A stretch of 64,000 nucleotides of DNA from Candidatus Bathyarchaeota archaeon (GCA_963772455.1 CAVYXJ010000013.1:32001-96000); one strand, 5' to 3'. Numbered from the stretch's first letter, positions 5,920 through 58,821 are shown. Made by a program: numbers and translations. Notes: generated from the sequence alone by a model not told the origin.

Positions 5920-5966
5920 AACTGATAAGTACCTATTGCGCCTAAATAGCTGGGAGTGCGTTTGGT

Positions 5967-6584: not shown

Positions 6585-6586
6585 AA

Positions 6587-6913
6587 CTACATTAAATGTT
6601 TCTGTAGTGTATCGCCAATTTTATTCTTGGGGCATAAACCAACTAGTCTTTCTGCTTCTTTTCCGTCTTTGAAAACTATCATTGTGGGTATGCTGAAAAC
6701 TTGGAATTTTTCTGCTGTGGCAGGATTTTCGTCAACGTCAAGTTTGCCGATTAAAGCTTTGCCACTATACTCTTTTGCGAGTTCCACGATGGTTGGAGCT
6801 AAAGCTCGACATGGTCCACACCAGTTAGCCCAGAAATCAACAAAAAACAATTTGTTTTTTTTGAGTGTTTCTTCAAAATTTGAGTCGGTTACATGAAAAG
6901 GTTCAGTGCTCAT
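6587..6913 (-). CDS. trxA: Thioredoxin
   Basis: WCGPC active site, SIPT cis-Pro. Confidence 0.96.
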   Translation of the reverse strand: MSTEPFHVTDSNFEETLKKNKLFFVDFWANWCGPCRALAPTIVELAKEYSGKALIGKLDVDENPATAEKFQVFSIPTMIVFKDGKEAERLVGLCPKNKIGDTLQKHLM

Positions 6914-43319: not shown

Positions 43320-43479
43320 TAAATAACATGTTGTTTTTGTTTTCGTTTACTGTTGCAATAAATGCCAAAGGGTATAGCTCATTTTTTTGAGGATAACTAC
43401 TGATAGAACAACATTTAAAAAAAAGTTTGTTGTTGTTCTTTCAGTTATAGATCGTCTTTATTGGCAGTACAAGAACGAT

Positions 43480-43876
43480 CTCCACGTGGGTATCGTGGCA
43501 GTAGATGGGACAAGCAACGTAAATATGGTTCATTATTCGAACGTCAAAATCGTAATGTAAATACCAAAATAGGTAAAATTGCTCGTATTTTTCAGTTTAC
43601 CAGAATAATTTTACTCGATTTTCAACGAAAAAACGTATTAAAAAGTCTGAAAATTTAGGCAATCATACTTTTTTATATGAAGGCGAAAATACAATTCGAT
43701 AACATACTTTACTTATCGCAAAAACCCTCTTTGAAAACAACCGATCAACCCAACCTATGAACGCAACACAAAAAAACTTACTTTGTTAAAGTTAAGTTTA
43801 TCAAGCTTTTAGTTTAAAATTTAGTTTATGCTTTTTCCTAAACGTTGGGTTTGTTTTGAGAGATGGGTTTTCGATG
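43480..43876. repeat. Conserved array-distal block, copy 1 (direct repeat of 53090-53482)
   Basis: Starts cgtgggtatcgtggcag; highly similar from ~43610 (ttttactcgattttcaacgaaaaaac...) into the gene tail ISQNKPNV. Confidence 0.92.
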
Positions 43877-45013
43877 CATTCTAAAAAGCAAAAGAGAGAC
43901 CAAGATAACCGTTAAAACAACAACCACAACAATAATGAGGTAAAAAATTGTTATCCCTATGAATGCTGGAAAAACAAGTGGATGATGGTCAATGTTGTTT
44001 TGGTCAATAACGTGTGTTCCGTTACCAGAATAGTCACTCCAGTAATTACCCTCTTTTCCATTATCCCACGAAACAATATCAGTTCCGTTAACTGAGGTTG
44101 GATTTTTATTCAAATAAGTTGTCTCAACCAAGGCATTTTGACCATTACTGACAAAGTTATTGCTATAAACAACGTTTCCTAACCCAATGTATGCATCGCC
44201 AGAGACTACAAAATTCTCAAGTTTAATCCCAATAGTGTTCCCGTCAACTTCATTATTATGAAAATCTGTGTTGCTAACGCCACGCCCAAAATTGGCCCCA
44301 AAGATACTGTTGTCTATTATCTTATTATCATGGATTGAATAAGGACCAGTCCACTCGAGAACCAATCCTTCCTCATTATTCATAATTGTATTATCGTTGA
44401 CAATCACGTATCGTGAGTAAATGCTAACCCCTTGACTGTTGTGGCTGATTGTGTTTCCTGAAATCACACCTGTAGAAGCCATGCCGTTTGATGAGATTCC
44501 AATTCCTCCTTCATTATTGATAATGGTGTTGTCTTTTATCTCAAAGTTTTCACTTCTTTCAACCATAATTGCTTGGTTATTATCGGTAATGATGTTCCCT
44601 ATTATTTTGCAGTTAGAAGGAATTGCTTGTTGGGCATAATTTGCGACAGATATGGCTGTTTCACAGTTTCTTATCGTGAACCCAGAGATGGTTACATCTG
44701 GGGCTCCAACCTTAATTGTTGCACCGGCAAAAGGGTATTTTTGACCCTGAATAATAGTTTTCTGAGGAGATTCTCCTGTTAAGGAAATTGATTTGCCTAT
44801 TGTTAGCTCTCCAACCTGAAATGTTCCGCTCCTAACATAAACGGTATCTCCTGTATTGGCATTGTTTATAGCCCCTTGGATTGTTTGGTAATTATCTGGA
44901 ACAGTTATTGCTCTCGGTAGGACATAAGTCCTTAGAATTACTATTGTAAAAACGGATGCCGCTATGACAAGAGCAATAAGCAAAACAGCAGAACTCTTTC
45001 TGATAGTTCCCAT
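43838..45013 (-). CDS. Surface protein cassette: NosD/right-handed beta-helix with C-terminal TM
   Basis: ITVPDNYQTIQGAI, parallel beta-helix repeats, WDNGKEGNYWSDY, D..PL, TM, tail RKPISQNKPNV. Confidence 0.88.
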   Translation of the reverse strand: MGTIRKSSAVLLIALVIAASVFTIVILRTYVLPRAITVPDNYQTIQGAINNANTGDTVYVRSGTFQVGELTIGKSISLTGESPQKTIIQGQKYPFAGATIKVGAPDVTISGFTIRNCETAISVANYAQQAIPSNCKIIGNIITDNNQAIMVERSENFEIKDNTIINNEGGIGISSNGMASTGVISGNTISHNSQGVSIYSRYVIVNDNTIMNNEEGLVLEWTGPYSIHDNKIIDNSIFGANFGRGVSNTDFHNNEVDGNTIGIKLENFVVSGDAYIGLGNVVYSNNFVSNGQNALVETTYLNKNPTSVNGTDIVSWDNGKEGNYWSDYSGNGTHVIDQNNIDHHPLVFPAFIGITIFYLIIVVVVVLTVILVSLLLFRMHRKPISQNKPNV

Positions 45014-45037
45014 AGTTAGCTGATAGACCCGCTTTAA

Positions 45038-45137
45038 ATAAAAGACTTCTCGTACAAGACTCTTGACTAAGAGCAGTCAAACTTCCTTTACTGAACTGTG
45101 TTTGTGTTTTTTGTGGTAGACCAACAAACCAGCAGAT
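45038..45137. repeat. Cassette junction repeat J1 (promoter, two palindromes, upstream gene tail)
   Basis: ataaaagacttctcGTACAagactcTTGACtaagagcaGTCAAacttccTTTACtg...tgtgttttttgtggtagaccaacaaaccagc; near-identical to 56156-56251. Confidence 0.9.
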
Positions 45138-46210
45138 GCCACCAAGATAAAAGCAACGACTGAAACAGCGGTTATAATGACCAAGTTTCGAGAGGAGTCT
45201 AATCCTGATTTAGTTTCATAAGATGGAGCAATAAGCGGATAATGGTCTATATTTGTAGCATCAATAACATAAGCTGTATCTCCGATGCCGTCCCAGTTAG
45301 CATCTGAACCATTATAGCCTTGCCAGTAATTGCCTTCTTTGCCATTATCCCAAGAAGTATCTTGAACTGTCACATCCAAACTTACAGGGTTATTTTTACC
45401 TAAGAAGGTATTGTGAAAAAAAGTATTATTTGTAGCTAAACCAATAATTAAATTGGTACCATAACGTCCAACACTAATTTTGTTATTATCAAAAATATTG
45501 TTGCTGCTATTATAAATTTGAAGTGCACTGTTGAGTTTTCCTTCCGTGTCAATAGTATTTTCAAAGATTATATTCTGGTTAGAAGAATTCAAGTAAAAGT
45601 AAGACATTTCATTTAAACCGATTGTGTTCTGGTCAGCCAATTCCAGATTAAGGGTGTAAATATTATTTTTGAGGAGAGTATTATAAGCGCCTACTAGTTC
45701 AACGCGCCCGTTCCAAGTGTTATTAGATATATTACAGTTAGACCCACTTATTGACAACGTCTTCCCGCCTGTTATGTTATTGTCGCATATTTGGGTTCTA
45801 TCGCCTTCTACCGTGATGTCTCCGAACGGCGAGAGGATAATTGTTAAGTTTACAAGCCGCACATCATTGGCTTTAATGTTAATTGAATCCGTATGACCAT
45901 AAAAAGGGGTAGTTATAATCCATTCCACACCATATGCAGGGAACAAATTTATTACAGTCTTCTTGGCGTTTTCTCCGATAATCCAGAGGGATTTGTCAAT
46001 TATCAATGTTTGATTAATTGGTCCATCATATTCTCCCTCTTTAACAAATATCGTATCCCCATTAGTTGCATTTCCGATTGCCGATGCAATCGTTGGATAA
46101 TCGTCTGGAACAATGATAGTTTTGTTTTCAGCTTTGACTGGCAAAAATGTGATTATGGATGATGCTGTTAGGAAGACGAGAACAAGTGCTAAAGCTAAAG
46201 CTTTACTCAT
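45077..46210 (-). CDS. Surface protein cassette: NosD/beta-helix with C-terminal TM
   Basis: Signal MSKALAL...VKA, IIVPDDYPTI, WDNGKEGNYW, tail GLLVYHKKHKH. Confidence 0.88.
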   Translation of the reverse strand: MSKALALALVLVFLTASSIITFLPVKAENKTIIVPDDYPTIASAIGNATNGDTIFVKEGEYDGPINQTLIIDKSLWIIGENAKKTVINLFPAYGVEWIITTPFYGHTDSINIKANDVRLVNLTIILSPFGDITVEGDRTQICDNNITGGKTLSISGSNCNISNNTWNGRVELVGAYNTLLKNNIYTLNLELADQNTIGLNEMSYFYLNSSNQNIIFENTIDTEGKLNSALQIYNSSNNIFDNNKISVGRYGTNLIIGLATNNTFFHNTFLGKNNPVSLDVTVQDTSWDNGKEGNYWQGYNGSDANWDGIGDTAYVIDATNIDHYPLIAPSYETKSGLDSSRNLVIITAVSVVAFILVASAGLLVYHKKHKHSSVKEV

Positions 46211-46240
46211 TGCCACCACTTCATTGTTGGTTGGTTTGCA

Positions 46241-46299
46241 GATAAAAGACTTCTCGTACAAGACTCTGGACTAAAATTAGTTAAGAATTCTGGACTAAG
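46241..46299. repeat. Cassette junction repeat J2
   Basis: gataaaagacttctcGTACAagactcTGGAC + GTTAAgaattcTGGAC, 24 bp apart. Confidence 0.88.
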
Positions 46300-46398
46300 C
46301 TGAATTGCGGATATTATTAAAATAGTTTACCTTCATCGAGAACATTGCCGTTTAGTTTAATTGAGGCAATGAAACTTGAATTTATGACTTCTAACGTT

Positions 46399-47199
46399 TT
46401 ATTTCCTGTTTTTCCTTAGGGCAACCAAAAGAACAACAGCAATTGCTACAAGTCCAATCCCAATGGCACCAATATAATAGGTTGAAAAATTAGTTGTTAC
46501 TGAGAAATTTGTTACAGCTTCAGCTCTTCCCTTTTCAGTCACCACTATCATTAAGATTTCATAGTTACCCTCAGAGATTGATGTTAAAGTTGTATTTCCT
46601 GTGAGGGGATATTCATTTGATGTATCAGGTCCATAGTGTGGGTAATCTGCATTTTCATACAAATAGTAAGATGCCTTCTCCATGTTTCCATTAACAGTAA
46701 AGATTAGAGGTATCTCTCCAGTGTAGGTTTGGTTTGTTGGAGATAAAATTTTGATGCTTGTAACTTGATAGCTGGAATTTACTGTAAAGTCTCTTGATGT
46801 GTACATGCCGTTTGCGTAAGCTTCCACTGTGTGGTTACCGTCAGATAAGTTCTCGAGAATAGCTTTGCCAATTACTGTGTAGCCAACTCTTCCTGGACCA
46901 AAGTTCGAAGGGCTTTTGATTGTGAGATTTCCAATATATTGCAATGGCTCTCCATCTACACTGTAGGCTATGTTGTTAACTTTTTGTGATTCAGCGAATT
47001 GATAGACATTCACTTCAAGATTGACAGTAGAATTCTCATATCTATTTGGAGGGTAAGGGGGAGAGATAATCTTCATAGAAGGTATTGGAATTTCATCAAA
47101 AAGGGAACCTTCTGTCACTAAGAGTTGAGAGGTAGCCCCTACTAATAGCAGCATTAGCAAAATAGTAGCTACATTATAGGTCTGTCTCATGTTTACCAA
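46399..47199 (-). CDS. Surface protein cassette: tandem Ig-like domains with TM
   Basis: IISP..NxxY repeats, YSVDG, NLSDGNH, C-terminal TM + RKNRK. Confidence 0.82.
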   Translation of the reverse strand: MVNMRQTYNVATILLMLLLVGATSQLLVTEGSLFDEIPIPSMKIISPPYPPNRYENSTVNLEVNVYQFAESQKVNNIAYSVDGEPLQYIGNLTIKSPSNFGPGRVGYTVIGKAILENLSDGNHTVEAYANGMYTSRDFTVNSSYQVTSIKILSPTNQTYTGEIPLIFTVNGNMEKASYYLYENADYPHYGPDTSNEYPLTGNTTLTSISEGNYEILMIVVTEKGRAEAVTNFSVTTNFSTYYIGAIGIGLVAIAVVLLVALRKNRK

Positions 47200-47220
47200 G
47201 GTCTGCTAATAGATTTCTAC

Positions 47221-47326
47221 TTAAGAGTTTTTTCGTAAAGGTTTCTTGACTAACTCTGAAAACTGCTCGGTCAAACTTTCTTTACTAAGTTGTGTTTGTG
47301 TTTTTTGTGGTAGACCAACAAACCAG
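47221..47326. repeat. Cassette junction repeat J3
   Basis: GTAAAggtttcTTGAC (47235) + GTCAAactttcTTTAC (47270) + LLVYHKKHKH tail DNA. Confidence 0.85.
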
Positions 47327-48218
47327 CAACTACCAAGGCTACTACTGCAACAGAAATAGAGGCAAAAGGAACAATTGGGAAAGGCAGGGTTTCTTCCTCA
47401 GGGACATTGAAAACAACAACAGCGCCATGTACAGACGGTGGTTCTTCTTCTCGGGAGAAAGCAATTGTCATTCTTCCAGCTTTACCATCAATCAGAGTAT
47501 TGTTTAAGGGCGTCAATGTTCCACGGGTATCTATAGAATAAGCTTGCAACTCAAAGAGGTCGGATTCAATCTGAATGCCGTATTTGTTGGGAGAATATCC
47601 ATACCAAGAGTACAGTGGGTATGAAATATTGCTGCATCCATAGCGCCCGTATAAAGGCAGTGTAAATGAATAGTCTCCAAGGTAAGCATAAGATGTTGGG
47701 GTTTTTGAAATCGGAAGCTCATAATGAATTGCCACAACAAAGTCACGCAAAACAGGTGAAACAGTCCAATTGATTTCCTGCAAGTTGGTGTCAAAAATAT
47801 GGAAATATCCACGAGAATCTATTTGTGATTCGACTTCTTCACCGTTTAACCAAACAGAGATGTGAGTCGTGTTAAAAGGAATTGGATAGTGAGCTTCCAA
47901 CGTATCTTGTGTAACGATAACTGTAACATAAGGTGATGAATCTTTTATCAAACCCATGCCAGTATTTTCTGCGATATAGCTATCTCCTAAGGCGTAAACT
48001 GTGTGCATTTTGTATTCTGCATCAATCTTCACCCATAAGGCTTCATCAACTCGGAAGATTGTGGCGTTGATGTTAGTTTCAGGCACGTTGACCTTTGGCG
48101 GGATTCCATAAGTGGGGTATGCTTTTGCAGTATTGACCGTTTGTAGTTCTCCAAAAGTAACCATGTATAATGTCAGGAGTAAGAAAATGACAAGTAGTTT
48201 GGCTGTGTTCTTGTTCAT
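47271..48218 (-). CDS. Surface protein cassette with C-terminal TM
   Basis: Signal peptide, beta-rich body, tail GLLVYHKKHKHNLVKKV. Confidence 0.82.
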   Translation of the reverse strand: MNKNTAKLLVIFLLLTLYMVTFGELQTVNTAKAYPTYGIPPKVNVPETNINATIFRVDEALWVKIDAEYKMHTVYALGDSYIAENTGMGLIKDSSPYVTVIVTQDTLEAHYPIPFNTTHISVWLNGEEVESQIDSRGYFHIFDTNLQEINWTVSPVLRDFVVAIHYELPISKTPTSYAYLGDYSFTLPLYGRYGCSNISYPLYSWYGYSPNKYGIQIESDLFELQAYSIDTRGTLTPLNNTLIDGKAGRMTIAFSREEEPPSVHGAVVVFNVPEEETLPFPIVPFASISVAVVALVVAGLLVYHKKHKHNLVKKV

Positions 48219-48252
48219 TTCAATTCCTACCAGTATAGGGCTGTTTTAGTGA

Positions 48253-48287
48253 TTAAAGATTTTTCCAAGTAAAGAATTCTGGACAAA
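48253..48287. repeat. Cassette junction repeat J4 (single palindrome)
   Basis: GTAAAgaattcTGGAC at 48269-48284 beside the TATA of the 48218 gene. Confidence 0.7.
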
Positions 48288-48373
48288 CAAAAAGTAGTCC
48301 TTCCAGCCTCGCCGCCATTCCTATAAAGGTGTGACCGGACAAGGGACACGTTAAATTCGTGGAGGTCAACAAA

Positions 48374-49494
48374 ATGATAACACAAGTAAATACAACGATT
48401 GAATTAAAACCAGAATTAGTCAATTTAGCTTGTGAAATAGGTTTAAATCCGTCTAAAATCTGTGAAAATGCCCTTAAATCGGCAATAAGGTGCCTTCAAG
48501 GCGTAAATTTGAATAAGTGTTTGGTGGACGAGCCGGGATTTGAACCCGGGACCTCCACGATGCCAACAGGGACAGAAACAAGCTCTTTTTCAGAAAAAAA
48601 GGCTGAATTAATCGTTAAACCTGAAACCCTCGTCACATTTGCGGAATTCATGACTGTAAACATGCGCCTTGAAAAGAGAACGGTTCGGGAAACAAAATCC
48701 AATGTTCATCGGTATTTAGAAAGTTCAAAATATGTCGTAAACTATGAAACTGTCTCGAAATTCCTGAAATCATACATGACCAAATCCTCAAGGACGTATA
48801 ACGCTCAGCTAACAAGTCTTGCGAAGATTTGTTAGAGATTTCTTGCATGCACCTGAAAGCATTTTAGATTTTAAGATGGCTCCAATTGATTTGTTAGGCA
48901 AAAACATACAGCTACCAACAAAAGAACAATTGAAGAAAGGTTTTGACGCTTTAACCGAAGAAGGCGAGAAAGCATTGTATTTGTTTACTTTGTCAACAGG
49001 TCTGCGCCGAAGCGAAATCATGGGGCTGACAAAAGACAAAATAGACTTCAAAATGCAGAAGCGTTATTCCCTTGCATTTCACACGCGTTAAACGATCAGG
49101 AATTACATTTTACAACTCAGAAACCGAAGAATACCTAAACAAATACTTGTCAGCACGACCAGACGATACCAAAGTTTTTAGGCTGTGTCCAAAGAAATGC
49201 AAGTTGATGTGGCGGAAAATCAGCGAAGCAGCAGGAATTAAGATTTCACCTCAAATTCTACGAGTTTGGTTTTCAAACGAACTGGGGGAACAATTCGTTC
49301 CTGATCGATTTGTTGACATTTTCCAAGGGCGTGCACCAAGATCTGTTTTCGCGAAGAGCTACACTGCAAAAGGAATTGAACGGTTAAAAGCAATTTATGA
49401 AAAAGCTAACTTAACTATTACTTGTCAAGACGCAAATGCCTTTGTTTTTTCAATAGCTCATCCGTTAAGCTTTCGGCATGACTTTTCCTCTTGA
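48374..49494 (+). CDS. SSV-type tyrosine integrase: int(N) RHH-like domain + att + int(C); two frameshifts (~48818, ~49052)
   Basis: TGLRRSEI (Arg), RVKRSG (Lys), PQILRVWF, FQGRAPRSVFAKSYT (Tyr); reading frame runs through the tRNA-Ala 3' copy. Confidence 0.88.
48522..48567 (-). repeat. att site: copy of the 3' half of tRNA-Ala(GGC)
   Basis: tggtggacgagccgggatttgaacccgggacctccacgatgccaac matches 58500-58545 with one mismatch and ends just after the anticodon loop. Confidence 0.95.
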
Positions 49495-50025
49495 ATCCAT
49501 CAAATCACCGTCTTGAAGCCCACGTGTTTCTTCTGCTAATTTGTACGCATGTCTGAGCAAAACAAAGCTCAAAGCACGTTTGACTTCTTTTTCATCTCTG
49601 GCAAATTCATTGCCAAAATCTATTTCGTCAGCCGTAGTCAATTCTTCTTCATGTTTTCTCATATATCTTAATTCTAAATTAATGAATTTCTGAACTTCTT
49701 TAGGCAGTTCTTTAGCAAGTTCTTTGACCTTTTCTGTGATCAATTTTTCTGAAATCGTAAACAATTTGGCGTTCTCACGTTTGAGTGTAATAGACATTCT
49801 TTTTGGCGTTTACTTTGTTTTGGCAGTTTATCGATGTATATTCCATCCATTTCTTCTTTGAGATAACGGTAGAGTTGTATTCGCGTCCCATGGGCTTTTT
49901 ACATTTTTGTCGTTAACGTGTGTTGCGAAGGTCAAGAAGTTTTTTTGACCTGATATTGGAGTTCCGTCAGGCATCAAATCAAGAATCTTTTCGATGTATT
50001 TTTCAGAATGTCTTCGGTTTACCAT
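49465..50025 (-). CDS. Element hypothetical protein(s), probably one frameshifted DNA-binding protein
   Basis: ORFs 49828-50025 and 49465-49797 bridged by alternative-frame IQLYRYLKEEMDGIYIDK. Confidence 0.5.
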
Positions 50026-50126
50026 ATTTCACCATCTTTAGTTTGGATATGCGAGCAAATAACCATAATAAAAACGATGTATATAAGTCATTCTGTCAAG
50101 TCAGCAATTGACATCATGCAAAAAAC

Positions 50127-50271
50127 ATGGAGATAAAAAAATTGGTAAAAATTCCAAGAATTGAATGCCCTCAGTGCCTCTATAATTGGCGTCCCGAGGG
50201 TAGAACCTTTGCCAAAACGTTGTCCAAATTGTGGACATAGGCTATCGCAGGAAAGTGAGGTGAAACAATGA
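50127..50271 (+). CDS. Small zinc-ribbon protein (one frameshift near 50195)
   Basis: Corrected translation MEIKKLVKIPRIECPQCLYNWRPRVEPLPKRCPNCGHRLSQESEVKQ; stop overlaps next ATG. Confidence 0.65.
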
Positions 50272-50684
50272 ACGAGAAAGAAATAGCAAAAATGATTGCA
50301 GAAAGCGAAGTCTTAGAGCCTTACCTGAGAAAAATGCCGCCAATCCCACAATACCAACTCGATTCGCAACAAGCTATTGAACTCTACAGAAAAGACGTAG
50401 ACGCGATGGAAGAAAACAATTTTCGAATCGCCGTTTTCCAATGTGCCTATGACATAGCAATCTGGCTTAGTGAAGGTGGAGGTTCGTTTACGTCTTTGCA
50501 ATGCATGACTCCTGAGTCTCACAAAAAAACTTTCAGTCAAATCAACTTTGGTCAACTCGAAACAAACGCTCAAGGAATAAGACAGGAAATTAAAAGATTG
50601 AAAATGGCTAAACCATTAATTTTAAAACTAATTGATGCAAACGCTAAGGCACAATGGGATAAAACTCAGTACAATCACTGTTGA
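50268..50684 (+). CDS. Element hypothetical protein
   Basis: 138 aa, GAGGTGA RBS. Confidence 0.75.
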   Translation: MNEKEIAKMIAESEVLEPYLRKMPPIPQYQLDSQQAIELYRKDVDAMEENNFRIAVFQCAYDIAIWLSEGGGSFTSLQCMTPESHKKTFSQINFGQLETNAQGIRQEIKRLKMAKPLILKLIDANAKAQWDKTQYNHC

Positions 50685-50711
50685 AACGCCAAATCGAATC
50701 ATCCACCCGAG

Positions 50712-51158
50712 TTGAATACGATTGGATGTAAGCATGAGTTAAAAACTAAAGGTCAGGAAGCCGTTCTTGACTTGGCTATACTTCAATACGAAAAGATTCT
50801 TGAAGTCTACAATATAGAGGCATCTGACAGAAAGAAATCCCCCATCGTTAAAGACATCATCAACAACATAACTTCATTGATTAAACAGGCAGAAAAAATA
50901 CACCCAATCATAGTTAAAGCTAATCTGAAAGCACAAAAAGCTTTGGCAAATGGCATTTCGCCTGATCTTAAAACTTGTAACTCTTTTATCGATGCAACTG
51001 CCAAATTCTCTGAATTGAGCCACGAATATTTCACTCAAAAGGGCAAACTCGATTTCTACACAGACCAATCTTCAAACGATCTTGTCTTTCCAACTTTAAC
51101 CAACAACGACACATCTGCTGAATATGAGATGAAGCGACAATGGAGGAAATTTGCCTAA
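50712..51158 (+). CDS. Element hypothetical helical protein
   Basis: 148-aa ORF in operon orientation. Confidence 0.65.
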   Translation: MNTIGCKHELKTKGQEAVLDLAILQYEKILEVYNIEASDRKKSPIVKDIINNITSLIKQAEKIHPIIVKANLKAQKALANGISPDLKTCNSFIDATAKFSELSHEYFTQKGKLDFYTDQSSNDLVFPTLTNNDTSAEYEMKRQWRKFA

Positions 51159-51407
51159 ACAATCGGAAGCCGCATGCTCCACAAAAGGCTCAGACAGCTC
51201 GTTTTCCGGATGCGCGTACGTAAACGGAATTTTCCGCAAAGCAGGGCTTAATCTTTGCCCTTGATTCCCCTAACGCGCGGGGCTCCTGCTTGGAGGTTTT
51301 ATGTCATCGCTGTCGGGCTCTGCGGAAAAGCATGTGGCTTTCAAACGAAGTTGCGTTTCATCAATCCCCTTTTTCATTTTTTATTATTATTAACGGAGGT
51401 GAATTAC

Positions 51408-52064
51408 ATGAATAACAAAGTAGGAAAACTCATAAAGACAATATCAATCGATAACAAGCCAGAACTTGTTCAGCATATTGAGAAACAATCGAATTTCAGC
51501 AACTACGTTCAAACACTCTTAGAGCAAGACCTTGCAAGACTTCACGCAACACAGCAACAAAAACAGACTGAAGCGAAAATAGAGCTAACAAAAGATGAAT
51601 ACCTCACATTCGAGCATTGTAAAAAATATTTCAGAGAATATGGCGGTATGACCTATGCAAAGTACTTCCATTACTTCCCTGTGCAAATAAGCTCCGACCA
51701 TCTGAATTGTTTATTGTTAGATGTTTATGATATTTGTAAAACGTATGCTCCAACAACCGCCGAATACATTAAGCATATTAGAGAAAACGATGAAGACTTT
51801 GATATCTTCTACGATAAAATAAGTCGTTATTGGCAACAAGAAAATCCAATACCTGAAGACTGGAAGAAAGAAATCATACCTGGAATGACATTGCATGAAG
51901 CACTTTCAAAGATTATACCTGAAGCTATCAAGCTAAAAGACAAAGATATTCCATTAACAATCAAACGAATCAGCGAGATAGTGGGGTTAACCTATCAGCA
52001 AACATACACACAACTAATGCCACATATCAGACCTATTCTAAAAGAGCTACAGGTTGAAGTTTAA
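51408..52064 (+). CDS. Element regulator-like protein (N-terminal RHH-like, C-terminal HTH-like)
   Basis: GGAGGTGA RBS before ATG 51408; KTISID...NFSNYVQTLL; LTIKRISEIVGLTYQQTY. Confidence 0.65.
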   Translation: MNNKVGKLIKTISIDNKPELVQHIEKQSNFSNYVQTLLEQDLARLHATQQQKQTEAKIELTKDEYLTFEHCKKYFREYGGMTYAKYFHYFPVQISSDHLNCLLLDVYDICKTYAPTTAEYIKHIRENDEDFDIFYDKISRYWQQENPIPEDWKKEIIPGMTLHEALSKIIPEAIKLKDKDIPLTIKRISEIVGLTYQQTYTQLMPHIRPILKELQVEV

Positions 52065-52882
52065 TAATAATAAAAAAAAATAAACCCTTTCTTTTTTGTT
52101 AAACTAATCGAGGCAATCTTAACCTGATGTTTCCTTAACGTTAACATGAATAGTGAAGTCAGCGTTACCGCAGTAAACAGCGTTATAATTGCTAACAATG
52201 AAAACTCTGGAACAGTGGGAGTTGGCGTTGGATTGGGAGTGGGAGAAGCAGATGAAGTTTCACCGATGGTTATTGTTTGTGTATCGCTCCAATCGCTTGT
52301 TTCACCGATAAAAGTCCATCCGCTTGGACTTGATTCAGAGTTATAGCTAATGTAGCCTATGAATGCTTTAACTTGAAAATCAATTTGGGAGTCAGGTGGT
52401 AACGTTGGACCGAACCCATTCCATCCAGCCGATGAATAGTCTCCTTTATACGAAAAAACCGAATACTCTGTTTTTAATTGGGCATCTTCTACCGTCAACA
52501 TAGCATATTCATCATAGGGGTAATACTTCTGATGCCAGTCTTTTTCAAAATGTCCCTTCCAATGAATCTCATAGTGAAGATAAACAGTCCTGTCCCCAAT
52601 CTGTTCCTTGATTGTAAAAGGGGTGAATGGCTGATTCTTTACCGAAAGTTGAATGGTTCTTGATTCAACATGCCGTCCAGCCTCGTTTATAACCTGTCCG
52701 TTGAAAGGGTTTACCGTTGAAGAAGGTGGAATATCATAAGAGGAGTCGATAAGGGTAACATTAAACTCAGGCACAGAGGGTTTAGGTATTGACTGAGCAT
52801 ATGCAGATTCAATCATTATCAGACTTGAAACTGCTAAGACAATAACAAGAAGTAACGAGAACCCTTTGCCGATACTGCCCAT
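52061..52882 (-). CDS. Surface protein, AQSIPKPSVPEF family, PEF-CTERM-like anchor
   Basis: Signal peptide, PT-rich linker, TVPEF + TM + RKH. Confidence 0.85.
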   Translation of the reverse strand: MGSIGKGFSLLLVIVLAVSSLIMIESAYAQSIPKPSVPEFNVTLIDSSYDIPPSSTVNPFNGQVINEAGRHVESRTIQLSVKNQPFTPFTIKEQIGDRTVYLHYEIHWKGHFEKDWHQKYYPYDEYAMLTVEDAQLKTEYSVFSYKGDYSSAGWNGFGPTLPPDSQIDFQVKAFIGYISYNSESSPSGWTFIGETSDWSDTQTITIGETSSASPTPNPTPTPTVPEFSLLAIITLFTAVTLTSLFMLTLRKHQVKIASISLTKKKGFIFFYYY

Positions 52883-53089
52883 ATCAAGTACTAAGAGAAT
52901 AGAAGCGATAAAAGGTTTATTCCAAAAAACTATACTATTTCAATTCTCCTAATTTGATTCGCTTTGAGAGTTGTTGTACTTTTCGAGGTTGCTTCGTTGT
53001 TGGTATCGTAAATGTTGAGAAAGCTAAAAGCTGCAAATTCCATTAGAAATAGGTTTAAGATGGAAAAACTCCATTCTTTTGCTAATGTT

Positions 53090-53482
53090 CACCGCGTGGG
53101 TATCGTGGCAGATGAATGCTGTTTCATTGAACATGTTTGCAATTATCGAAGCTAAAATTTGAAGTAAACATTGAAACAAGGTAAAATATGCCTTAATTTT
53201 CAATTTTACAGAGAATTTTTACTCGATTTTCAACGAAAAAACATATTAAAAAGTCTGAAAATTTAGGCAATTATACTTTTTTATACATAGATGAAAATGC
53301 AATTCGATAACATACTTTACTTATCGCAAACCTTCTTTGAAAACGACCGATCAACCACCCTCTGATCGCAACACAAAAAAAACTTACTTTGTTAAAGTTA
53401 AGTTTATCAAGCTTTTCATTATAAATTTAGTTTATGCTTTTTCCTAAACGTTTGGTTTGTTTTGAGAGATGGTTTTTCGATG
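53090..53482. repeat. Conserved array-distal block, copy 2
   Basis: Direct repeat of 43480-43876. Confidence 0.92.
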
Positions 53483-54388
53483 AGTTCTGTAAAACAGAAG
53501 ATAGATAATAACTATAACTAATACGACAAATACGAATGGAACTATTAAGACAAAATTGTTGTCAGATACTTGAGAAGGCGTTGGCGTAGGGGTTTGCATC
53601 GGAGTTGGTAAAGGTTTTACTGAGGGCAAAGGCAAAAACGGTTCTGTCTTAATCAAATAAATCCTTCCTGTTCGTGGATTATCGAATAAATTATATCCAA
53701 CACCCAAAACAGCGAGTGCACCATTAGATGTTTCAATTATCGAAGAAATCTCAAGAGGAGCAGTGCCATCACCACCAGTGTAGGTCAGGTTTATTATCCA
53801 TTGAGTGTTGTTATTTGAATCAGTTTTAATAAGGCTGCCTTGTTCTCCATAAACAAACCCGCTATCACTTGTTTGAACGAGAGTTGGAGCACTGCCTAAG
53901 TCTGGTACACTTGAATAATTTTGAATCCATTGGATGTTTCCTTGAGAATCTGTTTTAATTAAAGTAGGAGTGAATTCACGTGCCCCTCCGCCAATTAAAG
54001 CGGAAAACCAGCTTCCTGATAATTCATATCCTTCATCGCTTGTTTGGATAAATGTTGTTGCTCTAAAGTAACTGATGGTTTTATTCCATTGTAAATTGCC
54101 TGATGAATCAACTTTGTATAGGGTTGATGGTCTAATAGTGTACTGGTATGACCAACCCAAATTCACGAAAACGTACCCTCCATCACTTGTTTGAATTAGG
54201 TTTGAAGTTGATTCAACATTAGTGTCGCCATAAGGACCAGAATCACCGTAATCTTTTTGCCATTGTATAGTGGGAGCAGAAGTAAATGTGGTTGATTGGG
54301 CTTTCACGGTTGCAGGTTCAAGTGTAATTAAAGAAGTTAGGAACAACGCAACAAGAACCAATGCAAAACTCTTGCTTTTCTTACCCAT
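53444..54388 (-). CDS. Surface protein cassette: beta-propeller-like repeats with TM
   Basis: QTSDGGY/LIKTDS.GN.QW repeats, tail RKTISQNKPNV. Confidence 0.85.
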   Translation of the reverse strand: MGKKSKSFALVLVALFLTSLITLEPATVKAQSTTFTSAPTIQWQKDYGDSGPYGDTNVESTSNLIQTSDGGYVFVNLGWSYQYTIRPSTLYKVDSSGNLQWNKTISYFRATTFIQTSDEGYELSGSWFSALIGGGAREFTPTLIKTDSQGNIQWIQNYSSVPDLGSAPTLVQTSDSGFVYGEQGSLIKTDSNNNTQWIINLTYTGGDGTAPLEISSIIETSNGALAVLGVGYNLFDNPRTGRIYLIKTEPFLPLPSVKPLPTPMQTPTPTPSQVSDNNFVLIVPFVFVVLVIVIIYLLFYRTHRKTISQNKPNV

Positions 54389-54410
54389 AGTAAGCTGATA
54401 GAACCATTTC

Positions 54411-54446
54411 AGATAAAAGACTTCTCGTTCAAGACTCTTGACTAAG
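54411..54446. repeat. Cassette junction repeat J5
   Basis: agataaaagacttctcGTTCAagactcTTGACtaag. Confidence 0.88.
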
Positions 54447-54510
54447 CACTATTTGCGTTTTCTGTATGTATTATTTAGGCGAAGATGTCAGAGCATTCAG
54501 TAGATAAGTA

Positions 54511-55224
54511 TTAGGAATAGAAAATAACTTTGAGATATTTTTGCTCACTTTTTTTGTTCTTCAATTGCGATATAAGTGTAACAGTAATTATTGCTGCAGC
54601 AATTAGAAAAGCAACACCTATGTATAGATACAAATTATCCTTCTCCATTTGGGCAGTATAAGTTACCAAATACTCTTTAAAGTCAAAAACTTGTACGAAT
54701 CCTCCATGTAGAAAAATTGCAGTATAGTAATTGCCTGATTCTGTAGCCCTAAAAGCTACTGCTCCATTCTTCCTTGCTACATTTGATGCCTCAAAATTAG
54801 TTCCATTTTTACTTGCCCATGCCGAGAAGTCAAAACTGTTATTGTTTAACTGAATAACAACTGATTTAAAGTTGGTAAATTGTTGCTCAGAAAAAATGAA
54901 GCCAGTTACGTAAATATCTGTGTCCCACTTAGCTTCTATGCCTTGTCCTGCGTGGAGAGATATTGGTGGTAGATTGAGAAAATCAGTATTAGGTGGCTGA
55001 AATGGAGGATAATAATAGTTCCCATTTAGGTATGTGTTATTTACTGATGCTACTGGATTTGGGTAGTTTATGTTTGGAGTATCAGTTTGATAAGAACTCC
55101 TTATTGGAGCAGTATGTGGAGAAGCAAAGTTGAGAGAGATAAAAAATGCGCCCGTTAGAAGCAATATTAAGATAACTATTTTTACTATATTTCTAAGTCT
55201 GAATCTCTCTACCTTTGGCTTCAT
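54511..55224 (-). CDS. Surface protein cassette with N- and C-terminal TMs
   Basis: Start set at MKPKVER from TATA spacing. Confidence 0.75.
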   Translation of the reverse strand: MKPKVERFRLRNIVKIVILILLLTGAFFISLNFASPHTAPIRSSYQTDTPNINYPNPVASVNNTYLNGNYYYPPFQPPNTDFLNLPPISLHAGQGIEAKWDTDIYVTGFIFSEQQFTNFKSVVIQLNNNSFDFSAWASKNGTNFEASNVARKNGAVAFRATESGNYYTAIFLHGGFVQVFDFKEYLVTYTAQMEKDNLYLYIGVAFLIAAAIITVTLISQLKNKKSEQKYLKVIFYS

Positions 55225-55250
55225 ATCCATATTCTGTAAGATGTTAGTCC

Positions 55251-55350
55251 ATAAAAGCCTTGCAGTAAACAATTCTTGACTGAGATTCGTAAAATTTCCT
55301 TTACTAAGTTAAGTTTGTGTTTTTTGTGGTAGACCAACAAACCAGCAGAT
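55251..55350. repeat. Cassette junction repeat J6
   Basis: GTAAAcaattcTTGAC (55265) + GTAAAatttccTTTAC (55289) + tail DNA. Confidence 0.85.
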
Positions 55351-56130
55351 GACACCATAATAGTTCAGTAGCAGAGGAATTGTCCATAAGGGAAACTCTG
55401 GAACTGTCGGGGTGGGTGTCGATGATGTTATGGTTGGAGTTGGTGTTAAATTTGGTGAGGGTGAGGTTGAAGTGGAAGTTGGAAGAGGTTCAGGATAAAT
55501 CAATGTTGGATATGGGGAATTATCAATACTGCTTGCAAAAACGTTTGCAGTATCACTTTGGTTAATTGTCACAGTAAGCGTATTGCTCCATCCACTATCT
55601 TGACCATTAATCACGGGATAGGGAAAAAGTGGTTGTATAACCCAGCTTTGGTAGCCAATCATAGATATTACTTGAACATCAATCACTGAACCTTTAGAAA
55701 AATCTTGGTGGATAGTGAAATAGGTAAAAACAGAACTATAGTTTCTATTTAGGAAGCCCTCGTCTTCTCCGCCATAAAGATATTGCCAATATTCACCAAA
55801 GTGTCCCTTATAGCGGACATTGTAGAAGAAGTTAAGGTCACGTCTTGTACCATTGGGGTTTGTTAGTACAAACTGGTTGAAGGGTTGATTTTTGATTTTC
55901 CCTTCAATTTTTATATCGGTAATATGTCTGCTGGGAATAGTCGTTTGTTGCCCAGTATAGGGGTCTGTTTGGATTGTTGCAGTAGTATCATATGAATTAT
56001 CAACCACTTGGATAGAAAACTGCGGAACAGATGGTTTAGGAATAGTTTGAGCATTGACGGATTCTGTCAAAAATACAGAGAAGGCTAAGATAACTACAAT
56101 TAGTACTGAGAAACCCTTGATACATTCCAT
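55309..56130 (-). CDS. Surface protein cassette, AQTIPKPSVPQF family, PEF-CTERM-like (frameshift near 55363 in the TM)
   Basis: Start MECIKGF; TVPEFPLW; SAGLLVYHKKHK lies in the adjacent frame. Confidence 0.82.
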   Translation of the reverse strand: MECIKGFSVLIVVILAFSVFLTESVNAQTIPKPSVPQFSIQVVDNSYDTTATIQTDPYTGQQTTIPSRHITDIKIEGKIKNQPFNQFVLTNPNGTRRDLNFFYNVRYKGHFGEYWQYLYGGEDEGFLNRNYSSVFTYFTIHQDFSKGSVIDVQVISMIGYQSWVIQPLFPYPVINGQDSGWSNTLTVTINQSDTANVFASSIDNSPYPTLIYPEPLPTSTSTSPSPNLTPTPTITSSTPTPTVPEFPLWTIPLLLNYYGVICWFVGLPQKTQT

Positions 56131-56947
56131 GTTTAAGGTTAGGGTTGGTTTGTAGATAAAAGACTTCTCGTACAAGACTCTTGACTAAGAGCAGTAAAAC
56201 TTTCTTGACTAAGTTGTGTTTGTGTTTTTTGTGGTAGACCAACAAACCAGCTAACACCAGCGTTATTGTTAGTAGTAGCGGAATTGTCAATGAGGAAAAC
56301 TCTGGAACGGTAGGAGTTGGCGTTGAATTAGGTGAGGGTGAAGTTGAAGTGGAAGTCTCAGGTATGGTTATTGTTTGTGTTTTACTCCAACCACTTGCTT
56401 CACCTGTAAAAACCCAAGGAGCCAAAGGTAGTTGCTGGTCTCTGAAGGAATTGCCTATCAACGCTTCAACTTGAAAATCTGCTTGACTGCCTGAAGGAAT
56501 ACTCAAAATTCTTAGACTCGAATGCAAAGACTCTGCTCCCGACAAAGCGAATGAAATGATGGTACTTTGATTTCCTGAATCTTGACTTGGATATGCATCA
56601 GGACTAAAAAGCTCCTGCCAATCGGTTGAAGAATGTTCCTTCCAGCGAACATTATAGAAAAATCCAATTCCAAAGGTATCATCAACATAAGGTTGATTCT
56701 TAATAATTATCTTTACGGCACTATATTCCATATGATATCCATTATCATTAGCTTCAAACAGTCCAGTGCTGGGATTAAGAGAGTAAGTTGGTGGTTTGTC
56801 AAAAGATGGACCTATTAACTCTAAGGTGAATTGCGGAACAGATGGTTTTGGTATTGTTTGAGCATTTACAGATTCAACCATCAGTAGACTTAGACTTGAG
56901 ATAGCCATTGTTAAAATCAGAACTATTGCTAAATTCTTGCTATTCAT
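56036..56947 (-). CDS. Surface protein cassette, AQTIPKPSVPQF family, PEF-CTERM-like; usual stop lost
   Basis: TVPEFSSL + TM + LLVYHKKHKHNLVKKV, then reads through J7. Confidence 0.82.
   Translation of the reverse strand: MNSKNLAIVLILTMAISSLSLLMVESVNAQTIPKPSVPQFTLELIGPSFDKPPTYSLNPSTGLFEANDNGYHMEYSAVKIIIKNQPYVDDTFGIGFFYNVRWKEHSSTDWQELFSPDAYPSQDSGNQSTIISFALSGAESLHSSLRILSIPSGSQADFQVEALIGNSFRDQQLPLAPWVFTGEASGWSKTQTITIPETSTSTSPSPNSTPTPTVPEFSSLTIPLLLTITLVLAGLLVYHKKHKHNLVKKVLLLLVKSLVREVFYLQTNPNLKHGMYQGFLSTNCSYLSLLCIFDRIRQCSNYS
56156..56251. repeat. Cassette junction repeat J7
   Basis: GTACAagactcTTGAC (56170) + GTAAAactttcTTGAC (56194) + tail DNA. Confidence 0.9.
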
Positions 56948-58184
56948 TGGTGGTCCTTCTATGCTTGAGGTAAACTGCAGCTAAGAGTACAGGCACAAAG
57001 AATGTTAAAATTGCCAATACTGGAAACTCTGGAACGGTAGGTGTAGCTGTTGGTGACAAGGTAGGTGTTGGTTTAGGGGTTGTTGTAGGGGTTGAGGTGG
57101 GAATCGTTGGTGCTTCAGGGTTTGGTGCAGTTAAAAAGGGTGTGAAATTGACTGTACCTAAATTGAAATCATTCTTTTTATCATGGATTGTTTGGCTTAT
57201 CATTGCTGAATTGGTTGTTCCCCACCAATTATTAGTAGCATCCACATTTTCATTAGCTTCTGGAGCTAAGTGTATGTTTTCAGAGTTTCCGTAGATATTG
57301 TTGTTATTAATGCGTGGAGTAGGGTAGGCGATTATGCCAACTGTATTGTTAACTATTGTATTCTTTAGAATAATGCTATGGCTTGCCACTATTCCTTGAT
57401 AGTTATTGATGACTATGTTTTCTTCAACCCTGCAAGAAGGACCTGATTTGATCCCAACTTTGCACCCATAGACTGTATTATTAGATAGAACATAGATGTC
57501 ATGAAAACTGTTGTAAATAATGCCTATTTCTCCACCAATAACCGTGTTGTTTGAAATCGTGGAGGCATCATCGTCTGTATAAATTCCCCAATTAATGTTA
57601 TGAACTACATTGCCTGAAATCGTTGCTGAAGACTTAAAAATTGACATCGTATCCCATTCGCCAAATATTTCATTGTTCGTAATTATAGTTGAACTATATT
57701 GACAGCTTATGTATCCTGTTATTGTGTTGTCGTTTATTTTTGGGGATGTGCCATTAATTTTTATCCAGATTGATTTTAATATGGAGTTTTCTATTATGGA
57801 GCCTAATTGTGTGTTTTTGTTCCAGCTTGGGCTTGGATTCATAAATTCGATATATGATGCTCTATTATCGCCACCGTTGAAATTTACTTTTTCAGTGTTG
57901 CTGCCTTTTGCATTTATTGTGCCATTTACTAATAGGTAATGGTTGTTAAGGTTTACAGTGGCTCCAGAATCAATTGTTAATGTTGCTCCTTGACTTATGG
58001 CTACAGGACCTGCAAGATTGTATGGGCTGTTTGCTTTGGTCCAAGTTGTATCTGAGTTTATTATCATACTGTTGATGGTAGTACCGTTTTGAGCTAATCC
58101 AAAAGGTGTAGTTCCAACAATTATTAAACTCGATACAGCCATAATTAGAACAAGGAATACTGCAAAACTCTTACTTACACCCAT
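56940..58184 (-). CDS. Surface protein cassette: right-handed beta-helix, PEF-CTERM-like
   Basis: TTWTKANSPY, beta-helix repeats, DATNNWWG, TVPEFP + TM + KHRR. Confidence 0.87.
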   Translation of the reverse strand: MGVSKSFAVFLVLIMAVSSLIIVGTTPFGLAQNGTTINSMIINSDTTWTKANSPYNLAGPVAISQGATLTIDSGATVNLNNHYLLVNGTINAKGSNTEKVNFNGGDNRASYIEFMNPSPSWNKNTQLGSIIENSILKSIWIKINGTSPKINDNTITGYISCQYSSTIITNNEIFGEWDTMSIFKSSATISGNVVHNINWGIYTDDDASTISNNTVIGGEIGIIYNSFHDIYVLSNNTVYGCKVGIKSGPSCRVEENIVINNYQGIVASHSIILKNTIVNNTVGIIAYPTPRINNNNIYGNSENIHLAPEANENVDATNNWWGTTNSAMISQTIHDKKNDFNLGTVNFTPFLTAPNPEAPTIPTSTPTTTPKPTPTLSPTATPTVPEFPVLAILTFFVPVLLAAVYLKHRRTTNE

Positions 58185-58207
58185 AGTCAACTTATAGAAC
58201 TCATTTT

Positions 58208-58266
58208 AGATAAAAGACTTCTCGTAAACGTCTATTGACTAAGCCAAGTCAAGGTTTCTTAACTAA
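58208..58266. repeat. Cassette junction repeat J8
   Basis: agataaaagacttctcGTAAAcgtctaTTGAC + GTCAAggtttcTTAAC, 24 bp apart. Confidence 0.85.
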
Positions 58267-58351
58267 CAAAAGGTAGACCTTCCACCTCGCCGCCATTCCT
58301 ATAAAGGTGCATCCGGACAACAGACACGTGTAAAACGTGGAGGTCAACAAA

Positions 58352-58633
58352 ATGATAACACAAGTTAGTTCAACAATCGAGTTAAACCCTGAATTAGCGA
58401 ATTTAGCCTATGAAATGGGTTTAAATGCGTCAAAAATCTGTGAAAACGCCCTTAAATCGGCAATAAGGTGCCTTCAAGGCGTGAACTTGAATAAGTGTTT
58501 GGTGGACGAGCCGGGATTTGAACCCGCGACCTCCACGATGCCAACGTGGCGATCATGCCAGACTGATCTACTCGCCCAAATTTATCTGGCTTCTGAAAGT
58601 TACCCCGCCTCATTTAATAAGCGTTTCTTATAG
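58352..58633 (+). CDS. int(N) fragment (RHH/CcdA-like), reading antisense through tRNA-Ala
   Basis: Nearly identical to the first ~65 aa of the 48374 integrase; diverges at the att crossover. Confidence 0.8.
   Translation: MITQVSSTIELNPELANLAYEMGLNASKICENALKSAIRCLQGVNLNKCLVDEPGFEPATSTMPTWRSCQTDLLAQIYLASESYPASFNKRFL
58500..58577 (-). tRNA. tRNA-Ala(GGC), integration target
   Basis: GGGCGAG...CCACG-TTGGCAT-CGTGG...GGTTCAAATCC...CTCGTCC-ACCA. Confidence 0.95.
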
Positions 58634-58821
58634 AGCCAAGGAAACCATCAAAAAACATTGTTGGAAAAACTTAGATGTTGTATCGACTGAAAGAAGTTAA
58701 CTCTAAGCAATGAATTTTATTATTGCTTTTTTTTAGGGCTTTTTCGACATTAATTCCGGTTCCAAAGGTTTATGCGGCGTAGCTTTTTATAAGGCAAACG
58801 CAAATAGAAAAGCCAAGCAAG

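Follow-up and report, generated by a model that had tools for sequence, protein, structure and literature searches.

How two arrays of surface-protein genes came to lie beside fragments of an integrase gene in an archaeal chromosome, and whether this arrangement amounts to an integron-like platform, is the question raised by a stretch of DNA from Candidatus Bathyarchaeota archaeon (GCA_963772455.1 CAVYXJ010000013.1:32001-96000). Bathyarchaeota are abundant, largely uncultured archaea of sediments and soils, and their cell surface is almost unknown. The window, by which we mean the whole analysed stretch of 64,000 nt, is given as one strand, and its positions 43,480-58,633 are displayed. An earlier note on this DNA had proposed that an integrase collects and exchanges surface-protein cassettes at a repeat found at the gene junctions. 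Our analysis points to a different origin. The 15-kb island (~43.47-58.55 kb) is probably best explained by two related SSV-type ('suicidal', type I) integrase elements, placed one after the other in tRNA-Ala(GGC), together with a junction module of the regulon type. Judged from its sequence, the junction repeat is most likely a shared regulator site plus promoter and not a product of integrase-mediated capture.

The island is well delimited. Outside 43.4-58.6 kb, the window contains plain chromosome with housekeeping genes on both sides (PheRS, ribosomal proteins S12 and S7, DNA ligase, inositol-phosphate synthase, and PGI), and no sequence of 43300-58700 recurs in the rest of the window. Inside the island, two pairs of flanks define the two units: 43571-43899 and 53179-53505 are 88% identical over 331 nt (E 2e-113), and 48265-48567 and 58244-58545 are 88% identical over 303 nt (E 3e-106). 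These flanks enclose array 1 (43838-48218, four genes) and array 2 (53444-58184, five genes). The earlier note had recognised that the arrays differ in content, and they have no gene in common. Beyond the flanks, there is no other gene-sized DNA common to both units, just short repeats at gene borders.

The second flank pair, the int(N)/att block (copy 1 at 48265-48567, plus strand; 88% identical to 58244-58545), combines operator site 1 of the promoter of gene A4, the int promoter, the integrase fragment int(N)1, and a 46-nt attachment (att) site. The first pair, the distal block, had been described as a unit flank of ~390 bp, and this description holds for its left ~200 nt, which are non-coding and restricted to the two units. 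The final ~120 nt of copy 1 (43571-43899), at 43776-43899, are instead the 3' untranslated region (3' UTR) and anchor-tail coding end of gene A1; this right part is also found at eight of 20 loci from other genomes, whereas the left part never recurs there. ORF comparison detected no conserved small open reading frame (ORF) in the left part, and Rfam detected no known RNA in the distal block. The left edge of unit 2 and its distal block together occupy 53084-53505 (block at 53179-53505) and include a 17-mer at 53095-53111 that is identical to the 17-nt core (43485-43501) of the left edge of unit 1 (43474-43501); two matches were found and none is expected. This boundary motif weakly resembles the anticodon-stem region of tRNA-Ala (0/500 and 9/500 shuffles attain the score). 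With a likeness this marginal, the motif is at most a candidate for a decayed att site.

An intact tRNA-Ala(GGC) gene is located at 58500-58577 on the minus strand (ARAGORN; Rfam tRNA 52.6 bits), and its 3' half (58500-58545) constitutes attR. The earlier note had placed tRNA-Ala at the units; one such gene is present, and the second 'att' is a 46-nt copy of the tRNA 3' half. This copy, attL of the right-hand element (48522-48567, minus strand), has one mismatch in 35 and is 97.8% identical over 46 nt. The two repeats are the only ones in the window, with no third att copy. A candidate tmRNA at 48522-48629 was rejected (Rfam 22 bits, gathering threshold 47): its first 46 nt are the tRNA-derived att copy and the remainder lies in int(C). 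With array 2 between both att copies, the proposal that the arrays are carried by tRNA-Ala integrative elements is upheld.

The att sequence lies inside the int ORF, where it is translated as LVDEPGFEP.TSTMPT, and the gene has been split by integration, with int(N)2 at one att copy and int(C) after the other. int(N)2 (58352-58546, plus strand) encodes integrase residues 1-65 and stops exactly at the att boundary inside the tRNA; it is 88-92% identical to residues 1-65 of two intact 350-aa integrases, P0001 and P0003 (92% to P0001). Given that the left unit abuts the right element, int(N)1 of the former, the att site, and int(C) of the latter read as one rejoined hybrid gene (48374-49425, plus strand). 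The hybrid is colinear with P0001 and P0003 at 80-86% identity, across frames +2, +3, and +1, and contains frameshifts near 48820 and 49055. When P0001 and P0003 were mapped back, no second int(C) was found anywhere in the window, and hence none for the left unit. The ORF at 48359-48835, used as a query, has 15 longer relatives of 289-372 aa (six of 350-351 aa), and precomputed annotation assigns PF00589 and PF16795 to 15/15. Intact relatives exceed the cut-offs of both Pfam models (PF16795, archaeal phage integrase, and PF00589), while the pieces in the window stay below them (PF00589 21.9 bits, PF16795 20.9 bits) because the gene is fragmented. The split gene, the att site within the ORF, and the two domains in intact relatives all agree with the SSV-type assignment made previously. 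Since the two frameshifts inactivate the hybrid integrase, the island is probably fixed in place.

The right-hand element (48522-58545) has complete ends, in the order attL, int(C), four small backbone ORFs, gene M, distal block, array 2, int(N)2, and attR/tRNA, and the spacing of the att repeats predicts a circle of 9,978 bp. Of the left-hand unit (43474-48567), the parts that remain are array 1, its distal block, and int(N)1 together with att; this unit has lost int(C) and the backbone. The tandem could stem from two integrations or from the duplication of a single element, which look alike here.

These features match SSV-type elements such as SSV1 and the pT26-2 family, as presented in the available part of PMC7253208: attP is located in the int ORF with tRNA-derived sequence being translated, integration into the tRNA 3' half splits int into int(N) and int(C) (here with 46-nt direct att repeats), and the catalytic domain is PF16795 (here in the relatives). 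The differences are the host, which is a member of the Bathyarchaeota and not a hyperthermophile, the tandem units with a hybrid int that is continuous but frameshifted, and the gene content, as no replication or capsid gene was recognised in the island by Pfam or PHROG. The same part of that paper states that a tandem, int-reconstituting state 'has not been observed' in the authors' data sets, yet their model predicts it. The rejoined hybrid integrase is a rare snapshot bearing on the evolution of 'suicidal' integrases.

What do the elements carry? The nine array genes and one further relative, M, located between the arrays, are all encoded on the minus strand (10/10), as had been reported. 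All had also been called membrane-anchored, and a crude hydrophobicity rule indeed finds N- and C-terminal hydrophobic segments in nine of the ten; the exception is B4, in which a lost stop codon adds a read-through tail. By protein comparison, A1, A2, and B5 group as beta-helix proteins and M, B3, and B4 as 'IPKPSVP' proteins, leaving four singletons. Regarding the folds named in the earlier note, NosD or beta-helix domains are found in A1 and A2 (weakly in B5) and the IPKPSVP type in M, B3, and B4, while the Ig-like assignment of A3 stays under the cut-off and the propeller-like appearance of B1 is by eye only.

In array 1, A1 (43838-45013) is a NosD-type parallel beta-helix surface protein (PF05048 2e-28, PF13229 9e-21) with a signal peptide and a C-terminal membrane anchor ending in RKPISQNKPNV. 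A2 (45077-46210) is a beta-helix surface protein (NosD family 1e-16) with a AGLLVYHKKHKH-type anchor, A3 (46399-47190) an Ig-like surface protein (Big_7 22.2 bits, cut-off 24.1), and A4 (47271-48218) a surface protein with a AGLLVYHKKHKHNLVKKV anchor that matched no family. M (52061-52882), an IPKPSVP-family surface protein, has a PEF-type C-terminus and its own TATA-like promoter, and lacks the junction module. In array 2, B1 (53444-54388) is a repeat-rich surface protein that matched no model and has the same 'slot' ends as A1; B2 (54511-55227) is a family-less membrane protein with a degenerate promoter module (weight-matrix score 38); and B3 (55309-56130), of the IPKPSVP family, has an out-of-frame and probably damaged anchor module. 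B4 (56036-56947) is an IPKPSVP-family protein with a PEF-CTERM-like anchor, in which the stop codon is lost and the frame runs through the B3 promoter into B3. It overlaps B5 by ATGA. B5 (56940-58184), the first gene beside int(N)2, encodes a surface protein of the beta-helix type whose C-terminus is PEF-like (parallel beta-helix repeat 19.0 bits, cut-off 19.45). The out-of-frame anchor of B3 (55289-55354) and the lost stop of B4 (56036-56259) could reflect decay of array 2 or indel errors in the assembly.

The IPKPSVP proteins (52061-52882, 55309-56947) carry a nearly identical P(S/T)VPEF motif twice, past the signal peptide and before the C-terminal membrane helix. The C-terminus of B4 aligns with the whole PEF-CTERM model TIGR03024 at 18.2 bits (cut-off 23), B5 gives a weak PEFG-CTERM match, and M gives none. 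The M-type subfamily is large, with 1,970 representative clusters at E<=1e-3 and 1,387 at E<=1e-10, and no Pfam or NCBIfam model matches it. A structure model of M from an alignment of ten members, of moderate confidence (predicted local distance difference test, pLDDT, 73.4), shows an all-beta ectodomain flanked by a signal helix on one side and a membrane helix on the other. Compared with the PDB, the IPKPSVP fold gave nothing at E<=0.001, with a best match at 8.9e-3 and a template-modelling (TM) score of 0.19.

We now turn to the repeat at the gene junctions. Its 17-nt core occurs five times in the window, always inside the arrays (0.37 expected; 0/100 shuffles gave five). In gene direction, a strong junction reads TTAGTCAAGAGTCTTGTACGAGAAGTCTTTTAT and is followed by the ATG 24-31 nt on. 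A weight matrix was built from 29 module copies and scored on the window, the 20 foreign stretches described below, and 20 shuffles; it gave 38 matches in 21 sources with the consensus nTTAGTCAAgAAAcCTTgACnaatnTtAGTCAAGAGTCTTGTACGAGAAGTCTTTTATcT, and scores in the window range from 38 to 90 against a shuffle maximum of -1.1. The resulting 60-nt module consists of an upstream site, a second related site ~25 nt further, and TTTTAT, a putative TATA box, 24-33 nt before the ATG. The junction had been called palindromic. This applies to the upstream operator-like site, which forms a 7-4-7 dyad, AGTCAAG-N4-CTTGACT, in some copies, and not to the remaining copies or to the second site, which has no dyad.

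The control module of A1 occupies 45036-45095 (ATG 24-31 nt past the TATA), and further copies are found at 46240-46299 (A2), 54411-54470 (B1, site 1 missing), 55249-55308 (B2, weak), 56154-56213 (B3), and 58208-58267 (B5), all on the minus strand. One junction family had been thought to separate nearly all genes. Before five of the nine array genes (A1, A2, B1, B3, B5), the module is full and strong; three others (A3, A4, B2) have a degenerate version, and B4 has none. A second, 66-nt anchor module (45076-45141, minus strand) encodes the AGLLVYHKKHKH (AGLLVYHKKHKHNLVKKV) membrane anchor of the upstream gene together with its basic tail. A2, A4, B3, and B4 have this anchor module, the other copies (47270-47335, 55289-55354, 56194-56259, minus strand) being 86-92% identical to the reference copy. 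The final ~20 nt of the anchor module coincide with part of operator site 1 of the following gene, so that in the arrays this site covers the last codons and stop of the preceding gene. The two halves are separable: before A2, B1, and B5, the control module stands without an anchor module, whereas after A4 and B3 an anchor module is accompanied by a degenerate control module only. In this layout, each family gene is put together from a 60-nt control module, a leader and signal peptide of one of three classes, a freely variable ectodomain, and one of a few anchor/3' UTR modules, and a junction is the place where the anchor end of a gene adjoins, and partly overlaps, the control module of the gene that follows. 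We infer that the control module may act as a promoter bound by a common factor.

Is this module tied to the integrase? We scanned for exact matches to a 24-nt degenerate core, using one genome per species, and recovered 24 matches in 20 foreign stretches (L001 to L020) of up to 8 kb (two of 3.2 and 5.2 kb). They come from 10 Bathyarchaeota assemblies and from no other group, and several assemblies have three to five stretches on separate contigs. For 22 of the 24 copies, an ATG at 24-33 nt past the core begins an ORF of 50 aa or more whose N-terminus is hydrophobic and signal-peptide-like; the other two are remnants. Including the strong copies of the window (5/5), this spacing is shared at dispersed loci, as expected for a regulon-type motif. 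Three leader and signal-peptide classes recur among the foreign copies, and their ectodomains comprise NosD beta-helix, Kelch, PQQ propeller, fn3/Ig, and IPKPSVP types.

None of the 20 stretches contains a relative of the window integrase, of the backbone ORFs, or of the int(N)/att block, and none contains a tRNA-Ala gene. Eight have housekeeping neighbours such as ArgRS, EF-1alpha, TIM, CDC48, KdpABC, and PyrI (L003, L007, L008, L010, L012, L013, L014, L018), and six hold family arrays or unknown genes only (L006, L011, L016, L017, L019, L020). Among the others, three contain terminase and/or portal genes (L002, L004, L009), two a transposase (L001, L005), and one a tyrosine integrase next to tRNA-Asn (L015). 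These contexts come from Pfam annotation of 150 of the 157 foreign ORFs, that is, all but the last seven of L020. The sites are thus not confined to an integrase platform: 24 module copies lie in stretches without the window's integrase or att (0/20) and with housekeeping neighbours in 8/20. The earlier note had itself named a plain regulon, with the same junction upstream of dispersed non-array genes, as the outcome that would speak against it, and this is what the genomes contain.

Several of these loci deserve comment. Among the ORFs scanned, L015 is the sole stretch with a tyrosine recombinase, and its nearest family gene (5504-6832) is ~3.8 kb away, outside a suggested ~2-kb element. At L015:125-2261, tRNA-Asn precedes a gene for a tyrosine integrase of 475 aa, and the end of this tRNA recurs as a 17-nt copy at 2245-2261; the segment looks like a separate ~2-kb integrated remnant with another type of integrase. 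In L004 and L009, terminase or portal genes adjoin family genes. L017:7624-7998 and L002:5-301, from the same contig, appear contiguous, with a split IPKPSVP gene totalling 678 nt over the boundary; in that case, the terminase and portal genes would be immediate neighbours of a family array. In L012 (1105-3528), the module stands ahead of an 807-aa fusion of a PQQ-type beta-propeller and a dolichyl-phosphate-mannose protein mannosyltransferase, which hints that the regulon includes surface-glycosylation functions.

How, then, did the two arrays come to differ between like flanks? Three units recur in other genomes and among other neighbours: the A2 unit (45086-46301) matches L009:4865-6080 at 98.2% over 1216 nt, the A4 unit (47300-48287) matches L006:1828-2810 at 93.5% over 988 nt, and the B1 unit (53386-54445) matches L014:2820-3881 at 92.4% over 1062 nt, the L014 copy being located between a MazE/PIN pair and a pyridoxal phosphate (PLP) decarboxylase. 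All six ends of these matches fall in a module or at most 2 nt from one. However, alignments stop where conservation stops, and module-edge ends alone therefore do not show recombination at modules. No non-family sequence is common to the window and the 20 loci, so the unit identities of 92-98% are not comparable with housekeeping identity, and an all-versus-all comparison of the loci gave only six segments of at least 400 nt at 80% or more, too few for statistics. Within the island, the A2/A1 junction matches that of B4/B3 at 93% over 99 nt, though all four genes differ, and A1 and B1 are 80-90% alike in promoter, leader, signal-peptide start, and anchor/3' UTR, with unrelated ectodomains. 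The array content between the conserved flanks has been fully turned over. We infer that the conserved end modules probably allowed this turnover, by ordinary homologous recombination between them or by gene conversion or duplication.

A broader reading is that the whole lineage operates a 'plug-and-play' surface system, in which units reassort among chromosomal arrays, proviruses, and suicidal-integrase elements, the control modules double as recombination handles, and the island represents the natural tandem, int-reconstituting state. We regard this as possible, if on balance unlikely. A stricter proposal invokes dedicated cassette shuffling, with an unknown recombinase, unrelated to the SSV-type integrase, acting on the junction dyad AGTCAAG-N4-CTTGACT and moving promoter-to-anchor units among chromosomal arrays, proviruses, and integrative elements. 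It would account for the A2, A4, and B1 units in other species with all ends at modules, for the replacement of array content between 88%-identical flanks, for the 7-4-7 dyad at site 1 of some copies, and for two homology breaks located between operator sites 1 and 2 (B1 compared with L014, and the int(N) block before A4 compared with that before B5). However, no recombinase gene accompanies the arrays (tyrosine recombinase in 1/20 and transposases in 2/20 stretches, among 150 ORFs scanned with Pfam), the breakpoint pattern is expected without any site-specific event, and a TATA box with fixed 24-33 nt spacing to the ATG suffices to explain conservation of the module. Resting on three cases, dedicated shuffling is improbable.

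The opposite proposal is that no exchange took place. The genes would then be ordinary tandem paralogues with ends conserved by selection, and the units would differ through old duplication, divergence, and differential loss. The surface-protein family is indeed huge and diverse, co-oriented arrays without an integrase exist elsewhere (L006, L011, L016), and promoter, signal peptide, and anchor are functional elements under constraint. This proposal has to contend with end modules of 66-99 nt that are 86-93% identical beside ectodomains without detectable similarity, as at the A2/A1 and B4/B3 junctions, with A1 and B1, in which both ends are alike and the folds unrelated, and with near-identical units in other species whose neighbours differ. 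Given this mosaic structure, divergence alone is insufficient, and we assign little probability to a history without exchange.

There remains the integron-like platform, in which the SSV-type integrase beside each array would capture and reorder cassettes at the junction repeats. In its favour, the first gene of either co-oriented array directly adjoins part of a tyrosine-recombinase gene that has a promoter of its own, the int(N) block, itself conserved, extends into operator site 1 of this first gene, and array content differs between like flanks. Yet copies of the junction module are scattered over 10 assemblies, in 20 stretches that have neither the window's integrase and att nor tRNA-Ala, the integrase's own att is the tRNA 3' half and bears no likeness to the junction, and the window integrase, split by integration and frameshifted, is a pseudogene. 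Intact relatives fit the archaeal phage-integrase domain; in NCBIfam, P0001 and P0003, which are 80-84% identical, yielded weak XerA/XerC/XerD matches only (47-49 bits, cut-off 220) and no integron-integrase model at E<=0.01. Single-stranded DNA folds of seven junctions, three of them on both strands (10 folds), revealed no attC-type hairpins, with z between -0.3 and +1.1 in nine folds and -1.9 in one. Finally, eight of the nine array genes have their own TATA-bearing upstream module (five strong, three degenerate), and the same module precedes single genes elsewhere. The earlier note had already stated that the junctions are not attC-like and that each cassette has its own promoter; the folds support the former, and the position of the modules suggests the latter. 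It had also listed fixed gene order and breakpoints unrelated to the junctions as adverse outcomes, and neither was seen: order varies between genomes, and homology ends in or at modules, which is weak support because any model predicts it. Taken together, the dispersed module, its fixed spacing, the lack of hairpins, and the dissimilarity to att argue that the junction is a family-wide promoter with operator-like sites that is not tied to this recombinase, and capture by the integrase is very improbable.

The comparison with integrons leads to the same result. According to the available text of PMC9668308, archaeal integrons are defined by an IntI with a specific domain, by attC folding, and by attI. 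Similar to integrons, including archaeal integrons and clusters of attC sites lacking integron-integrases (CALINs; PMC9668308), the island has a tyrosine-recombinase gene beside co-oriented single-gene units that vary between conserved ends. In contrast to them, it has no IntI-type integrase and no attC folding as single-stranded DNA, its units seem to have their own promoters instead of being expressed from Pc, and its repeat is dispersed and independent of the recombinase.

Several points weigh against the reading we prefer, namely two SSV-type elements carrying members of a promoter-linked family. Full replacement of array content between flanks just 12% diverged, and units at 92-98% identity in other species, imply exchange faster than vertical descent. 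The left boundary of unit 1 has no att site, and two integrations are therefore deduced and not read off directly. The two frameshifts in int could be assembly errors. The promoter role of the module is based on its position and on general knowledge of archaeal TATA promoters. With foreign stretches of at most 8 kb, a more distant integrase would escape notice, and the scan, restricted to one genome per species, accepted only exact copies of a strict pattern; the window's own genome was not among the matches. Lastly, six of the 20 stretches touch mobile-element genes (L002, L004, L009; L001, L005; L015), so the link between the family and mobile DNA is real, if loose.

Two further kinds of system invite comparison. 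Cryptic integrated elements, as described in the accessible part of PMC6563490, are likewise small (~10 kb), tRNA-integrated, and equipped with an integrase as the only recognisable mobility gene, the rest being cargo. The same source notes that tandem arrangement at one target is known for tyrosine-recombinase elements, the arrays described being composed of proviruses and casposons. What sets the present element apart from those cryptic elements is its cargo, an array of one surface-protein family under a promoter that is host-wide.

Multigene surface-protein families with shared control regions are known, as are 'mobile promoters' upstream of unrelated genes. Here, too, one upstream module stands before differing products, the ends are conserved and the middle is variable, and the genes form arrays. 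The system differs from these families in being archaeal, in having a 60-nt module that is near-identical across at least 10 species-level genomes, in the overlap of this module with the upstream coding end, and in the location of some genes on integrated elements or beside virus-like genes. We found no description of this system in the literature on PEF-CTERM and on Bathyarchaeia surface-protein families, and the available part of a report on Bathyarchaeia viruses (PMC10848311) makes no mention of such arrays.

The remaining genes of the island give few clues. The four small backbone ORFs of the right-hand element (49465-52064; 49465-49797 on the minus strand, and 50268-50684, 50712-51158, and 51255-52064 on the plus strand) have no match in Pfam or NCBIfam. 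In PHROG, solely 51255-52064 is matched, by phrog_14312 of unknown function, and leads from a protein atlas were unreliable. Adjoining unit 1 on its left, a low-GC stretch (GC 0.355) encodes a 212-aa cytoplasmic protein (42681-43319, minus strand) without a Pfam, NCBIfam, or PHROG family. The atlas points from it to clusters of hypothetical proteins from Bathyarchaeota and viruses; in one cluster, 13% of the members carry RE_Bpu10I, a weak hint at a restriction endonuclease. The ORF may belong to the island. A scan for bacterial promoters and terminators was uninformative (45 found, 45 expected).

The kinds of components described here are already known; what is new is a tandem suicidal-integrase island carrying members of a promoter-linked surface-protein family. 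The idea of an archaeal integron thereby gives way to a testable alternative, a huge, unannotated surface-protein family with one very conserved control module. Members of this family are located partly on integrated elements or beside virus-like genes. For Bathyarchaeota, the system offers three handles: a motif with which to seek the regulator, a means of cataloguing the surface proteome by sequence alone, and an example in which to study how an archaeal surface is remodelled by mobile elements. If the plug-and-play reading were true, mobile elements would bring new ectodomains that are wired into the surface regulon of the host upon arrival.

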